Below, piece after piece: positions 21,326 to 25,945 of a stretch of 34,325 nt of DNA (the first letter of the stretch is position 1; each line of letters begins with the position of its first letter). Source of the stretch: Arcobacteraceae bacterium (GTDB taxonomy: Bacteria > Campylobacterota > Campylobacteria > Campylobacterales > Arcobacteraceae); NCBI GenBank assembly GCA_048268245.1, contig JBLWVX010000030.1, positions 1-34,325 on the forward strand. The letters run 5' to 3'. Made by a program: the position numbers and the translations under genes. The notes below the pieces were generated by a model, which did not search any database, had not been told where the DNA came from, and saw only the letters and a program-made list of their open reading frames with translations.

Positions 21326-22454
21326 ACTTCATACTTAAAACTTTAGCTATATTATAAGCACTTAATTCTAAATTTTTTTTTGCATCTTTTTTTATAGTTT
21401 CAAAAGGCATTGAAATTGGTGTTACATCAAATACAGCATCAATACCATATTCATATACAAGTTCATAATCATTTGACGTACAGCCAGCAATAGCAATGAC
21501 TTTTTTATCATATTTCTTTGCAAGTCTTGCTACACCTACAGGAGTTTTACCTTTTATAGTTTGACTATCAATCTTGCCCTCACCTGTAATAACTAATGAA
21601 GAATCTTTTATATGCTCTTCTAAATTTACTTTTTCCATTACTATATCAATACCGCTTTTCAGTTTTGCATTCATAAAAGTAATCAGTGCAAAACCTAAAC
21701 CTCCAGCAGCACCACATCCCTCAATATTTTTTGTTTTTTTATTAAAAGCTTTTTCACATAAGTTTGCAAAGTTTTCTAAGCTTTTATCTAAAGTTTTTAT
21801 TGTTTTCTCATCTGCACCTTTTTGTTTCCCAAAAACGAAAGAAGCACCATTTTTACCACATAAAGGATTTGTTACATCACAAGCTACTTCTATGTTTATA
21901 TCTTTATACTTTTCTAAACTACTAATATCAAAAGAATTAATCTCATCTATATATTTAGCACCAATTATCGGTAATTCTTTTTTATTCGTATCAAAAAACT
22001 TTACACCTAAAGCTTGAAGCATGCCAATACCACAATCATTTGTTGCACTACCACCAAGACCTAAGATAAAACTTCTAACACCTTTTTCAAAGGCATCTTT
22101 TATTAACTGTCCAAAACCATAAGTTGTTGTTTCTAAAGGATTTTTTTCATCTTGTTTTAAAAGTTCCAATCCACTTGAAGTCGCCATTTCAATTATAGCA
22201 GTCTTACTATCTCCTAAAATTCCATAATATGCTTCAATATCTCTTTGCAATGGATCTTTTACTAAAACTTTTTTTATTGAGCCATTTGTTGCATCAACTA
22301 ATGCTTCTACAGTTCCCTCACCTCCATCAGCAAGAGGTACTTTTATAAAATTAGCATCTATGAATACCTTTTTAAACCCTGTTTCAATTGCATTTGCTAC
22401 ATCTTTAGCACTTAATGTTTCTTTATATGAATCAGGTGATATAACTATCTTCAC
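21318..22454 (-). CDS. glxK: Glycerate kinase (GlxK/GarK family)
   Basis: KIVISPDSYKETL, PLADGGEGT, GLGGSATND, GAAGGLG, VITGEGKIDSQT. Start reassigned to GTG at 22454 (AAGGA upstream). Confidence 0.93.
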   Translation of the reverse strand: MKIVISPDSYKETLSAKDVANAIETGFKKVFIDANFIKVPLADGGEGTVEALVDATNGSIKKVLVKDPLQRDIEAYYGILGDSKTAIIEMATSSGLELLKQDEKNPLETTTYGFGQLIKDAFEKGVRSFILGLGGSATNDCGIGMLQALGVKFFDTNKKELPIIGAKYIDEINSFDISSLEKYKDINIEVACDVTNPLCGKNGASFVFGKQKGADEKTIKTLDKSLENFANLCEKAFNKKTKNIEGCGAAGGLGFALITFMNAKLKSGIDIVMEKVNLEEHIKDSSLVITGEGKIDSQTIKGKTPVGVARLAKKYDKKVIAIAGCTSNDYELVYEYGIDAVFDVTPISMPFETIKKDAKKNLELSAYNIAKVLSMKLN

Positions 22455-24189
22455 TTTCTTCCTTTTGTTTGTAAACAACAACTTTATTTTTTCCTATTCT
22501 TTTTGCTTTATATAGTGCTTTTTCTGCTCTTTGTAGTATTGTTTCAAAACTTTTATCTTCATATTTATCAAAAATTGAAATACCCATACTTAGAGTAAAT
22601 TTGATATCTAGTTCACCTATTTTAAAATTAGTGTTTTGTATATCTTCTCTTAGTTTTTCACTTATTTTAAAAGCATATTCAAGCTTTGTTTTTGGAAGCA
22701 CTAAAACAAACTCTTCCCCATCGACTCTACTTATCACATCACTTTTTCTAAATCTGCTTAATAGTTTATTTGATAATTGAACTAAAAGCTCATCACCCAC
22801 ATCCTGACCATAAGTATCATTTATTCTTTTAAACTCATCTATATCAATGATTATCATACATAAAGGCTCATTATTTCTTATTGAAATTTTGATTAATAAA
22901 TCAACAGCAAAATTTAAATAAGTTTTATTGTATAAATTTGTCAATGAATCTTTTTCTACAATTTGCTTTAGAACTTCTTTTGAATCCTCTAACTCATGAG
23001 TTTTTGTTTCTATTTTTTGCTGTAAATTTTTATTTAAATATTTCAAACTATTTTTATATTTTTCTAAAATAGTATTAACTTTTTTTGATAAATAATAAAG
23101 AATAAGAATTCCAAGTAAAGTTATAATAAAAGAAAAACATATTACATTGTAAATCATACTATCTAATTGTTTATCTAATTTCTTTTCGATTTTTATGATA
23201 TTTTTTTCTATATAATCTGTATAAACTCCAGTACCTATTACCCAATCAAATTTATCAAAACTTTTTACATAAGAGATTTTTTTTGATGGCTTATTTGTCA
23301 AAGGATCAATGGTTGTAGCATACTCAATAAAACCACCATCATTTTGTTTTCCTTTTTTTATAATATCTTGAACGATATACTTCCCATCAGAATTTAAATG
23401 CCATCTGTTTTTACTTATCAACTCTTTTTGAACATGAGAAATAGTAACACCTGTATAATCATAAGCAAAAACATAACCTTGGTTATAAAAAGTCATTATA
23501 CTTAATAACTCTTGTAACTTAGTCATAGTAGAAAAATATATATCTTCTTCGTATTTAGCACTACCAATAAAGATATTTAAAGGCTTAAACTCTTTGATGT
23601 ATCCAATTTTTTCTTTTGTTATTGACTCATTTGGCTTAAACCACTTCCATGTCAAAAACCCTTCACTATTAAATTTTAAAAAATCTAAAAATCTATTTAT
23701 TGTATTTTGAGCCGCTACATCATCAAGAATTAAAAAGTTTTTTCCTTCATATTTACTATTATGTGGATGCATTAAAGAAGTACCACCATAATCGAATAAA
23801 AAATAGTAACCCATTTTATTTTCAAAGAATCTAATATAAACTAATTCTTCTTTTACTTTTTGAATTATCTTTTCTTTTGGTAAATTTTTATTCTTATCAT
23901 ATATTTTTTCTATAATATTATATGCAATATTTACAGTATTTTTGATTTCTTCTTTTTCATTATCTTTTATTTGTTCATAAGACTTATCTAAAAGGTTTAT
24001 TGTATTTAAAACCCTTGATTTAATTTCATTTTTAACTTTAGTTTTTTCTTGAAAAATCAACTGCTGTTTTTGATTTTCAAAATAGTCTTTAAATTGCAAG
24101 ATAAATATATTAGTCAGAAATATAGAAGTAAATAATACTCCTACAATAGGAATAATTATAATCAATTTCTTAATATTATTTTCACTCAT
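22432..24189 (-). CDS. Membrane sensor with two Cache domains and a C-terminal GGDEF domain (DGEEF variant)
   Basis: Two TM segments flank the GYYFLFD / GYVFAYD...WVIGTGVY Cache repeats; DSLTNLYN, DIDEFKRINDTYG, RKSD, RVDGEEF, ALYKAK..GKN. Confidence 0.9.
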   Translation of the reverse strand: MSENNIKKLIIIIPIVGVLFTSIFLTNIFILQFKDYFENQKQQLIFQEKTKVKNEIKSRVLNTINLLDKSYEQIKDNEKEEIKNTVNIAYNIIEKIYDKNKNLPKEKIIQKVKEELVYIRFFENKMGYYFLFDYGGTSLMHPHNSKYEGKNFLILDDVAAQNTINRFLDFLKFNSEGFLTWKWFKPNESITKEKIGYIKEFKPLNIFIGSAKYEEDIYFSTMTKLQELLSIMTFYNQGYVFAYDYTGVTISHVQKELISKNRWHLNSDGKYIVQDIIKKGKQNDGGFIEYATTIDPLTNKPSKKISYVKSFDKFDWVIGTGVYTDYIEKNIIKIEKKLDKQLDSMIYNVICFSFIITLLGILILYYLSKKVNTILEKYKNSLKYLNKNLQQKIETKTHELEDSKEVLKQIVEKDSLTNLYNKTYLNFAVDLLIKISIRNNEPLCMIIIDIDEFKRINDTYGQDVGDELLVQLSNKLLSRFRKSDVISRVDGEEFVLVLPKTKLEYAFKISEKLREDIQNTNFKIGELDIKFTLSMGISIFDKYEDKSFETILQRAEKALYKAKRIGKNKVVVYKQKEESEDSYIT

Positions 24190-24278: not shown

Positions 24279-24319
24279 AAAAAAAGGGGAAAAGAGTTCG
24301 CGATCCTCTTTTCCCCTTT
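24279..24319 (-). terminator. Strong intrinsic terminator (minus strand)
   Basis: 14-bp stem at 24283-24296 / 24306-24319 with a GGGG/CCCC core; U7 tail on the minus strand. Confidence 0.88.
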
Positions 24320-24408
24320 ACTATTATCAAGTTTAAGAATAAACAGTCTTTGTTTATCTTAATCACTATGTAGTGAATGTTTATTATTTTAAGTTTGTTA
24401 CAACAATA

Positions 24409-24432
24409 CTAAGAATGATAATCCTTCGTCAT
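24409..24432 (-). CDS. Putative 7-aa micropeptide MTKDYHS
   Basis: GGAGGTG (24436-24442) with GGAGG 5 nt before ATG ACG AAG GAT TAT CAT TCT TAG. Confidence 0.4.
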   Translation of the reverse strand: MTKDYHS

Positions 24433-24461
24433 TTACACCTCCATATTGTTCGGATAATGTA

Positions 24462-24490
24462 ATTATAACATCTTTTTATCTTAAAAGCAA
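24462..24490 (-). promoter_or_regulatory. sigma70-type promoter
   Basis: TTGCTT (24485-24490), 17-nt spacer, TATAAT (24462-24467) with the extended TGn motif. Confidence 0.75.
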
Positions 24491-24505
24491 CTTAAAAGTG
24501 GTTAG

Positions 24506-25945
24506 TTACTTCAACGCATTTAATGTCTTATACTCATCAAGAGCAAAATCATCTGTCATACCAGATATATAATCAATAAGCAACCTTGCCCTTAAATACC
24601 ACTCTTCAAGCTTATATTTATCACTATTTTTATCATGTTTCATATCTTCTAAACTATTTCTATAAGCAACTATATGTTTTGAAGATAACCGTTTTACTAA
24701 CCGCTGTGAAATAAAACATGAGATGTTTTTATCAGAAATTAGGTCAAAAAAATCTTCACTTGATAGTTTTAATAAAGGTGTATATATATCAAGTAAGGAA
24801 CTTAATATTTTATGCCCTTTTAGTTCTAATGTTTGTTTGTCTTTATTACTATAAATATATTTGATTGATATTTCTTGTAAAATATTTATGGCTTTTGTAT
24901 ATTTACTATCTTTGTCAAACTCTAAAAGTGCGTCATTAAACTCTCCATTAAATACTTTTTCATGATTTTGTACATAAATATCTGAAACATGTTCTACTAA
25001 AGCATGTGTTAATTTTGCTCTTGTTAGAGTTAAGAAAAGGTTGAATTGATAAGGTTCATCTTCATTCTCTTTTGCTTTTTGATAAAAGCCTTCAACTAAA
25101 TCATGTAAATAAGTTTCCCCTATTTTCTCACAATGCTCTTTTATAAGTCTATAAATATCTTCAAATTTTAATATTCCTTTATCTACTGCATCTTCCATAT
25201 CTGCATTTAAATATGATATATCATCAGCTGCTTCCATAATATAAGTAATAGGAAATCTACACCCTTTTTTTATATCTAAAGTCTCACAAATTTCTTTTAC
25301 AATATCTCTTTCAGAGTAGTAAAATCCTGGTTTTTTCATAAGATAACTATATGGATGCTCTTTTTGTGGCCTTTTTTCATATGCTGCTCTTGAATATTTT
25401 AAAATCGCTGCTATTTGAGTATATGACAAATTTAATCTTTGAAGTCTAGTCACAACTCTGATTGCTTGTGCATTTCCATCAAAGTTACAAATATCTTCTA
25501 TCAGCATTTCTTTAAAATCTTCATCTTCTTTTCTAACATCAACTAAATAATCAAGTAACTTTACGCCCTTATTTCTCATCCAATCATTTATAGCAACTTC
25601 AGCAAAATGTCCAAAAGGAGGATTTCCTATATCATGAAGAAGACTAGTCATTTCAGCTGTTGAAACAAAAGCATCACCAAGCTCATCTAAGCCATGTTTC
25701 TTATCAAGTTTTTTTATAATAGTTTTTGCAATATATCTTGCTGTTTGAGAAACTTCTAGTGAGTGAGTAAGTCTACTTCTTACAGCTGCGTTTAACTCCA
25801 AAGGAAAGACTTGTGTTTTTTTCTGTAATCTTCTTAGAGCAGGAGCAGAAAGAATTCTTCCTCTATCACTCTCATAAGAATTGTTTATATCTGAGATAGG
25901 ATACATTTGTCTGTGTGTAGTAATTTTGTTATTATAATCAATCAT
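24506..25945 (-). CDS. dgt: Deoxyguanosinetriphosphate triphosphohydrolase (dGTPase)
   Basis: RRLQKKTQVFPLE, RLTHSLEV, LLHDIGNPPFGH, FDGNAQ, MEAADDISY, DYISGMTD. Confidence 0.95.
   Translation of the reverse strand: MIDYNNKITTHRQMYPISDINNSYESDRGRILSAPALRRLQKKTQVFPLELNAAVRSRLTHSLEVSQTARYIAKTIIKKLDKKHGLDELGDAFVSTAEMTSLLHDIGNPPFGHFAEVAINDWMRNKGVKLLDYLVDVRKEDEDFKEMLIEDICNFDGNAQAIRVVTRLQRLNLSYTQIAAILKYSRAAYEKRPQKEHPYSYLMKKPGFYYSERDIVKEICETLDIKKGCRFPITYIMEAADDISYLNADMEDAVDKGILKFEDIYRLIKEHCEKIGETYLHDLVEGFYQKAKENEDEPYQFNLFLTLTRAKLTHALVEHVSDIYVQNHEKVFNGEFNDALLEFDKDSKYTKAINILQEISIKYIYSNKDKQTLELKGHKILSSLLDIYTPLLKLSSEDFFDLISDKNISCFISQRLVKRLSSKHIVAYRNSLEDMKHDKNSDKYKLEEWYLRARLLIDYISGMTDDFALDEYKTLNALK

Follow-up and report, generated by a model that had tools for sequence, protein, structure and literature searches.

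The dual-function small RNAs (sRNAs) SgrS/SgrT, RNAIII/hld and SR1/SR1P carry reading frames of 26-43 or more residues, and the peptides that they encode are conserved. In organisms with RNase J, ribosome-binding sites near the 5' end can serve as stabilizers, as in the ermC leader with its stalled ribosome and in the STAB-SD of cryIIIA, both of which stabilize the downstream messenger RNA. RNA thermometers of the fourU type pair the purines of a Shine-Dalgarno (SD) sequence with a run of U residues through weak G-U and A-U pairs. A further case is the transcript of mccA in the microcin C operons, known from an Escherichia coli plasmid and as a homologue in Helicobacter pylori. According to passages of one report, mccA RNA is short, abundant, terminator-ended and ribosome-bound, and the ribosomes make it exceptionally stable (PMC4231749). 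Passages of a second report describe the 7-codon length as conserved and the peptide sequence as not conserved, with re-translation of the frame in vitro without ribosome dissociation (PMC6495379). Here we describe a small RNA gene of an Arcobacteraceae bacterium, located on the minus strand of contig JBLWVX010000030.1 (assembly GCA_048268245.1; genome 99.3% complete). Coordinates without a contig label refer to the 34,325-nucleotide (nt) stretch of this contig that was analyzed as a whole, called the window.

The Arcobacteraceae RNA resembles the mccA transcript in having a 7-codon frame, a strong SD and a short terminator-ended form, and by analogy it may also bind ribosomes. It differs in that no mccB-E genes adjoin it and in lacking the C-terminal Asn needed by MccB (the final residues of the 7-codon class, read by eye, are S, F, I, A, Y, T and W). 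It also has two extra covarying hairpins, 1-3 orphan copies, varied contexts, and an SD occluded by the frame itself. The RNA may act like mccA RNA without belonging to the MccA family. With the dual-function sRNAs it shares the form of a stand-alone RNA that has its own promoter and terminator and carries a frame, whereas that frame has 7 codons and its peptide is seemingly unconstrained. The ermC and cryIIIA stabilizers offer another likeness, a very strong SD near the 5' end in an RNase J-encoding organism; unlike them, this RNA ends approximately 130 nt later with no gene attached, and a stabilizing effect would be suggested by analogy. In folding models its GAGG pairs with UCUU or UUUU, much as in fourU thermometers, but no protein-coding gene is controlled and no cistron lies beyond the mini-open reading frame (mini-ORF). 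The explanation that we favor, with slightly better than even confidence, is that this is a ribosome-engaged small RNA that would work in the manner of the mccA transcript without the mcc genes.

Ribosome-binding site, reading frame and folding

The sequence of the interval identifies it as a predicted stand-alone, minus-strand gene for a structured RNA of about 177 nt. The elements of this RNA are listed here in 5' to 3' order (MFE, minimum free energy).

24279..24455, minus strand: predicted transcript of ~177 nt, inferred from promoter and terminator
~24455, minus strand: inferred transcription start site, 7 nt past the -10 element, from the promoter position
24402..24450, minus strand: P1 hairpin, from the MFE and consensus folds
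24436..24442, minus strand: SD sequence GGAGGTG, from the sequence
24409..24432, minus strand: mini-ORF ATG ACG AAG GAT TAT CAT TCT TAG (MTKDYHS), with ATG at 24432-24430 and TAG at 24411-24409, from the sequence
24377..24401, minus strand: A-rich single-stranded linker, unpaired in the MFE fold
24363..24376, minus strand: P2 hairpin with a 5-base-pair (bp) stem and a 4-nt loop, from covariation
24333..24362, minus strand: P3 hairpin with 12 pairs and one bulge, from covariation
Stem 24319-24283 and T7 24285-24279, minus strand: intrinsic terminator with a 14-bp G+C-rich stem, a 9-nt loop and U7, from the sequence and the MFE fold
24285-24279, minus strand: predicted 3' end in the U-tract, from the terminator

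An initial annotation of this DNA, made from the letters of the sequence, had reported the TG-n-TATAAT element, GGAGGTG, the MTKDYHS frame, the outer stem of P1, the two following hairpins, and the 14-bp terminator with its T7, and each of these was found where that annotation had placed it.

Copies in other Arcobacteraceae genera were found by BLASTN, and relatives were collected with two covariance models covering P1 to P3. The first was built from 4 near-identical sequences and a hand-written structure, and the second from 15 sequences aligned by the first. The second model recovered 80 loci in 69 of 151 Arcobacteraceae genomes (58 of 133 high-quality genomes), representing 14 of 22 genera, with 1-3 copies per carrier genome. 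Counts of copies given below refer to these 80 loci unless another set is named. A terminator, defined as a hairpin followed by at least T4 within 100 nt past P3, was present in 78 copies, and the predicted RNA length had a median of 172 nt (range, 161-186). Metatranscriptome contigs from 4 runs of 4 studies cover 24307-24438, 24317-24443, 24317-24397 and 24322-24434 with 0-1 differences. The flanking genes were covered in the same 4 runs by 18-37-nt pieces only, which are not usable as proof of RNA-only expression.

All 80 copies have a GGAGG-type SD followed by ATG, with 5 nt between the two in 72. Such an SD is unusually strong for the genome and rare in it: of 1734 long ORFs called crudely, just 21 have GGAGG within positions -18 to -4. 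The script scored GGAGGTG in 69 copies and AGGAGGT in 7 more, at least 6 of which read GGAGGTG by eye; L104, one of the copies scored AGGAGGT, has AGGAGGTT. The remaining 4 are variants, 3 of them still with GGAGG. The script took TTG as the start codon in 2 copies, each of which has an ATG one codon further on. The frame length is 7 codons in 63 copies (61 by script, plus L070 and L086, which were re-read by eye after the GTG within the SD had been misparsed), 6 codons in 1, and 12-15 codons in 16. The single 6-codon copy (L064) has a 3-nt deletion that leaves TAG in frame. The 12-15-codon class (L088-L104 and others, from genera g10 and g20) has a 1-nt deletion that shifts TAG out of frame, and its frame stops at a TAA in the conserved linker.

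Codon choice in the mini-ORF was compared with that of the genome. The stop codon was TAG in 57 copies, TAA in 23, and TGA in none; among 1149 long ORFs of the genome, usage was 70% TAA, 21% TAG, and 9% TGA. Codon 2 was ACG in 35 copies and ACA in 21, so that Thr occupied this position in 56. Codon 3 was AAG in 47 copies and AAA in 6, and Lys or Arg stood there in 61. In the crudely called ORFs, ACG accounts for just 2.6% of the Thr codons, and AAG for 13.8% of the Lys codons. The comparison of copies indicates selection on ribosome binding and on a very short frame, and probably none on the sequence of the peptide. The structure-controlled mini-ORF was one of three functions proposed in the initial annotation, and these counts, with the 7 codons of the variant subfamily described below, give it comparative support; it is the best supported of the three.

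Two other short frames were seen in this genome. In the window, an upstream ATG GAG GTG TAA at 24433-24444 lies in frame directly before the ATG of the mini-ORF; this upstream ATG is not conserved, and many copies have ATAC there. Another GGAGGTG with an ATG, opening a 12-codon frame, is located at C1:14405 on the plus strand.

The RNA from 24455 to 24279 had an MFE of -42.4 kcal/mol (z = -4.07), and 0 of 200 shuffles were equally stable. The outer stem of P1, AACAAUAU/GUAUUGUU, pairs AACAAUA (24450-24444) with UAUUGUU (24408-24402). In the inner stem, the SD bases GAGGUG pair with CAU.UCUU of codons 6-7, leaving AUG and codons 2-5 in the loop. Through these weak G-U and A-U pairs, the SD is predicted to be occluded by codons 6-7 of the frame itself. 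Pairing of GAGGUG with CAU.UCUU or CAUUUU was found in the MFE fold, the consensus fold, and single folds of 16 copies. The inner stem had been drawn differently in the initial annotation, as AAUGA with UCAUU; the closing A-U pair of that version is A-A in 5 of 15 sequences by eye, and the folds favor the GAGGUG pairing instead.

The helices differed in how they were conserved. In P1, 92-100% of cells across the 80 sequences were paired with almost no two-sided changes, and the changes in the outer stem were mostly one-sided G-U changes. P1 is conserved in sequence rather than by covariation, and its SD strand is invariant. Compensatory changes were found at 5 of 5 pairs of P2 (98.7% of cells paired) and at 12 of 12 pairs of P3 (88% of cells paired); both stems covary freely. 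The linker between P1 and P2 is A+U-rich and partly conserved as UAUUGUUaaa...UAAU, and it differs between the two paralogues of this genome. For all helices together, 92.5% of cells were paired versus 78.8% in shuffles in the 80-sequence alignment, whose fitting to the covariance model biases it toward the structure. No shuffle of 500 matched the observed value on any of five measures, and sliding the 3' partner by 1-3 columns reduced pairing to 39-50%. Two-sided changes occurred in 21 of 31 pairs. The 15-sequence alignment and the single-sequence folds of 16 copies agreed with this structure. An alignment of 15 sequences by MAFFT with folding by RNAalifold gave only P1 and P2, with P3 and the terminator misaligned, and was replaced by the model-guided alignments.

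A BLASTN search with the divergent copy L015 revealed a variant subfamily in 8 of 8 genomes of one further genus and 1 of 2 of another (L181-L189 and L105; genera g17 and g3). P1 is about 25 nt longer in these RNAs and has an extra internal hairpin, and the SD is paired instead with ACUUCU of codons 4-5. A frame of 7 codons with TAG was present in 8 of 8 copies read, of the MIGLLQW and MTGILHW types; L185 and L186 lie outside that set. The recurrence of a 7-codon frame in this subfamily is suggestive, not decisive.

Distribution of the family and its promoter

Outside the Arcobacteraceae, 140 genomes belonging to 25 further families of the order gave no match to the covariance model. When one genome for each of 185,579 species was scanned with a strict sequence pattern, 35 places matched, with titles naming Arcobacter, Halarcobacter, Poseidonibacter, Candidatus Marinarcus and Arcobacteraceae; the remaining titles were those of unclassified Campylobacterales, Campylobacteraceae, Campylobacterota or Epsilonproteobacteria metagenome-assembled genomes. 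Within the genomes searched, the RNA family occurs only in Arcobacteraceae. Plasmid and phage collections contained no match to the RNA and therefore gave no sign of a mobile origin. BLASTN matches in three genomes outside the family (G029, G033 and G009) were A+T-rich segments of 21-34 nt in the promoter or linker, and they were discarded, the covariance model having no match there.

The initial annotation did not recognize the RNA as a known family, and a search of Rfam 15 across the whole window agreed, with 0 matches at the gathering score. The best match below threshold was OrzO-P (24.6 bits against a threshold of 60, E = 0.084), strongest over the terminator, and the sub-threshold matches were discarded as terminator look-alikes. 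A full-text literature search on Arcobacter and Aliarcobacter small RNAs returned no description of such an RNA. The RNA family, which has no Rfam match and was not found described in that search, belongs to a group, the environmental, marine and food-borne Campylobacterota of the Arcobacteraceae, for which little sRNA biology turned up.

The -10 element and an upstream box accompany the RNA in 80 of 80 copies. In the window the promoter consists of the following parts.

24480..24496, minus strand: direct repeat TTTAAG-TTGCT-TTTAAG replacing the -35 box (TTTAAG 24496-24491, N5, TTTAAG 24485-24480), from the sequence; candidate activator site
24479-24471, minus strand: A-rich tract just upstream of the extended -10, from the sequence
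24462..24470, minus strand: extended -10, TG-T-TATAAT, with the hexamer at 24467-24462, from the sequence

The initial annotation had read a conventional promoter here, TTGCTT-17-TATAAT. TTGCTT at 24490-24485 and the 17-nt spacer do exist, but in a better reading TTGCTT spans the spacer of the direct repeat TTTAAG-N5-TTTAAG and the beginning of its second half-site; the repeat is conserved family-wide. In a profile of the 80 promoters, with positions counted from the opening base of the -10 hexamer, TTTAAG-N5-TTTAA(G/T) recurred every 11 bp and kept a constant distance to the -10. In the first half of the box, TT stood at -28/-27 in 72 promoters, and the AA at -26/-25 in 55 and 67, respectively. 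In the second half, the TTT at -18 to -16 was found in 66, 78 and 75, and the AA at -15/-14 in 63 and 66. The -10 hexamer counts were T71 A80 T67 A78 A76 T80, and in the extended -10, 63 promoters had G at -2 and the same number had T at -3.

This arrangement resembles the sites of HP1043/HsrA, the essential orphan regulator of Helicobacter pylori, for which excerpts of two reports give the consensus ttTAAG-5bp-tTTAAg (PMC5253667, PMC8345958). As described there, conservation is stronger in the first hexamer, activated promoters carry the repeat in place of a -35 box, and the targets, which include an sRNA and tRNA genes, go up after tetracycline (PMC5253667, PMC8345958). The H. pylori targets thus respond to translational arrest with a rise. 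The box in the window matches that consensus in its hexamers and 5-bp gap, the comparison being one of hexamers and gap. The promoters of this family also share the extended -10 and the better conserved first half-site with HP1043/HsrA promoters, among them the promoters of the sRNA cncR1 and of tRNA genes. They differ in that the sequence of the RNA is unrelated to CncR1 and that the box alone is not enriched genome-wide.

The genome encodes a candidate for the regulator, an orphan HsrA/CosR-like protein of 215 aa from the OmpR family with an atypical receiver domain (L122:1492-2139; C18:48884-49531, minus strand). It matched 8uvx and 8uuz at about 3e-26 and 2hqr, which we take to be HP1043, at 9e-20; generic OmpR-family chains matched at 2e-8 or worse. 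Transcription of the RNA is probably driven by this HsrA/CosR-type regulator. The strict combination of box and -10 (TTAAG-N6-TTAA-N12-14-TAnAAT) was found at 8 sites in the genome compared to 1-3 in five block shuffles. Two of these 8 sites belong to the RNA copies; the others stand before an operon of six tRNAs, an AhpC gene, two porin genes (one of them of the MOMP type), and two small ORFs of doubtful status. Those before named genes are located as follows.

C24:2873-2905: box and -10 before the Ser-Met-Gly-Gly-Met-Met tRNA operon
C4:96130-96162 (L178), C2:108553-108585 (L177) and C32:12415-12447 (L179): box and -10 before the AhpC gene and the porin genes

A position weight matrix made from the 80 promoters and run on this genome found only the two RNA copies and one weak site, the matrix being too family-specific.

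Proposed mode of action and competing explanations

If the RNA is engaged by ribosomes in the way that we favor, the conserved core would be a site for loading ribosomes rather than a base-pairing seed. Ribosomes would open P1 and translate the heptapeptide frame, which would fit approximately one ribosome footprint, so that repeated re-initiation would be possible. Ribosome occupancy at the 5' end would decide the fate of the RNA by shielding it from 5'-end-dependent decay and by setting P1 open or closed, and the level and conformation of the RNA would thereby track the translational state of the cell. Transcription would depend on the HsrA/CosR-type regulator. Downstream, the RNA might pair through its linker, P2 or P3, or it might titrate ribosomes or a rare tRNA; the peptide itself is a further candidate. 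RNase J is encoded in the genome; Hfq was not found in it.

Several observations weigh against this explanation. In DNA as A+T-rich as this, an ATG is expected to open a frame of exactly 7 codons with a probability of about 0.05, as estimated from base composition. The CAU of the His codon and the TAG double as pairing partners in P1, and part of the apparent conservation of the ORF is therefore explicable by RNA structure. The peptide shows radical changes at codons 4-5 (D/V and Y/S/F/L/E) and also at position 7. The frame is not strictly fixed in length, since the 16 copies with 12-15 codons stop within the independently conserved linker motif UAAU. An SD that is paired in the MFE fold is equally compatible with one that is never used. 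As for the promoter, neither the TTTAAG repeat alone (21 sites versus 21-30 in shuffles) nor a looser composite (32 sites versus 21-33 in shuffles) was enriched in the genome. The metatranscriptome contigs carry no strand, end or level information, and DNA can occur in RNA libraries.

Some of the same observations would be expected if the RNA were never translated, with P1 serving as a hairpin that binds protein or RNA, as an SD mimic or as an anti-anti-SD, and with action in trans through the linker or loops. We regard such a riboregulator as rather unlikely, although the base-paired SD in both the MFE and consensus folds, the pairing roles of the CAU codon and TAG stop, and the weak conservation of the peptide all fit it. 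P2 and P3 covary as in classical sRNAs, and Hfq-independent sRNAs are usual in the phylum; Hfq was not found here. It accounts poorly for an invariant GGAGGUG that goes beyond structural need, given that its partner is weak, U-rich and joined by G-U pairs, and for the variant subfamily, in which the register of the partner shifts while the SD, ATG and 7 codons persist. An ATG at optimal spacing in every copy and indels that keep the frame would also be unexpected. A trans-acting sRNA, another of the functions proposed at the outset, is possible; the unpaired linkers, through which it might pair, differ between the two paralogues of one genome. At the other extreme, the heptapeptide M-T-K-x-x-H-F/S could itself be the effector, whether as a signal, a ribosome-acting peptide or a precursor, with the rest of the RNA tuning its synthesis. 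Genes of 7 codons are expressed from short abundant transcripts, as mccA illustrates, and the strong SD, the preference for Thr at codon 2 and Lys or Arg at codon 3, and the synonymous alternation of ACG with ACA and of AAG with AAA speak for such a micropeptide. We nevertheless consider it quite improbable. Positions 4, 5 and 7 change radically, the 12-15-codon and variant (MIGLLQW) classes share almost nothing beyond Met with MTKDYHS, and Asn, by eye, is the final residue of no 7-codon copy. Beside the window copy there is no gene for modification or export; it is flanked by genes for an HD-domain dGTPase-like protein and a dCache-GGDEF protein, and the covarying P2 and P3 would be left without a role.

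A role in cis, as leader or attenuator for the dCache-GGDEF gene or as the 3' untranslated region (UTR) of the dGTPase-like gene, would fit the genus of the window, in which the RNA lies directly 3' of the dGTPase-like gene in 6 genomes and a same-strand GGDEF gene is next in 4 of them. This is very unlikely and largely refuted by the contexts seen elsewhere. The RNA has its own conserved promoter, which lies 15-45 nt past the stop codon of the upstream gene, and a strong terminator, and the GGDEF gene has its own TGTTATAAT. Among 16 copies inspected, the neighboring genes varied among genera, and the next ORF of at least 80 codons was on the opposite strand directly past the terminator in at least 6 (L006, L011, L019, L012, L002 and L014). 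Because the next ORF is so often convergent, the RNA is not a leader in general. No segment complementary to the 5' arm of the terminator and no antiterminator was seen by eye. The initial annotation had likewise treated the RNA as an independent unit and neither a GGDEF leader nor a dgt 3' UTR, a judgment borne out by a promoter and terminator that travel with the RNA. Its third suggestion, an RNA that binds and sequesters CsrA, is essentially refuted. It drew on two ANGGA motifs, one of them in a loop, and both are present in the window copy. FliW, the protein antagonist of CsrA, is also encoded (C3:76443-76766; L173). The loop motif is not conserved, however, often reading AAGGU and lacking GG altogether in the loop of the 12-codon class, and the single conserved GGA is that of the SD, within a stem. 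CsrB, RsmY and RsmZ are likewise small terminator-ended RNAs with GGA motifs, but they have many such sites compared to one or two here. A CsrA gene was not detectable: PF02599 gave no match over the cut-off in any of 81 family genomes, this one included, the lone sub-threshold match lying inside a 432-residue frame, whereas the same search was positive for CsrA in 42 of 57 genomes from the order's other families. Arcobacteraceae appear to be without CsrA while FliW is still encoded in this genome.

The reading of the RNA as ribosome-engaged can be extended to that of a translation-state sensor, which we think unlikely in this specific form. The HsrA/CosR-type regulator would activate the RNA when protein synthesis falters. 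P1 would act as a self-occluding ribosome trap with the rare codons ACG and AAG at the start of the frame, on which ribosomes would cycle or pause, and their occupancy would gate stability, conformation and activity in trans, or else titrate ribosomes or a scarce tRNA. Such a sensor would represent a free-standing counterpart of the mccA RNA mechanism outside antibiotic operons, fixed in a family that lacks CsrA. If translation is confirmed, the frame would be among the shortest conserved reading frames outside microcin C clusters, and the RNA would offer a natural setting, in a bacterium with RNase J, in which to study reiterative translation and the dependence of RNA stability on ribosomes. 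If it is not confirmed, this would be an ordinary but new family-specific sRNA. The analysis provides a new, well-supported RNA family with its covariance model, a clear structural core, a candidate regulator, and a testable hypothesis on the 7-codon frame and ribosome occupancy.

Neighboring genes and the second copy

In the window, the RNA gene lies between the HD-domain dGTPase-like gene (24506-25945) and the dCache-GGDEF gene (22432-24189), both named from Pfam domains. The downstream gene contributes one further feature to the interval.

24226-24218, minus strand: the downstream gene's own TGTTATAAT, from the sequence

A second copy is present in the same genome at C1:99322-99443 on the minus strand (L172), with 80% identity by BLASTN over the promoter and P1. 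Its frame also has 7 codons (MTKVLHF), and its linker is unlike that of the window copy. It is flanked by a 311-residue ORF and by a convergent ORF of at least 470 residues. In one other genus (G022; L009, approximately 1375-1058), the RNA is followed by a same-strand ORF of 105 residues, the start of which we take to resemble an SMR/SugE-type transporter.

A promoter and terminator scanner called neither site of the window copy. The -35 hexamer had 3 of 6 matches, and the terminator loop of 9 nt exceeded the maximum of 8 that the scanner allows, so that the miss is due to the scanner's own cut-offs and is not evidence against either site. At the 3' side of the RNA, shortly ahead of the terminator stem, the match of the metatranscriptome contigs of 3 runs breaks off at 24317 or 24322, and T-rich sequence follows in them (A-rich on the RNA strand). 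These T-rich ends may mark a processing or tailing site or may be a library artefact.

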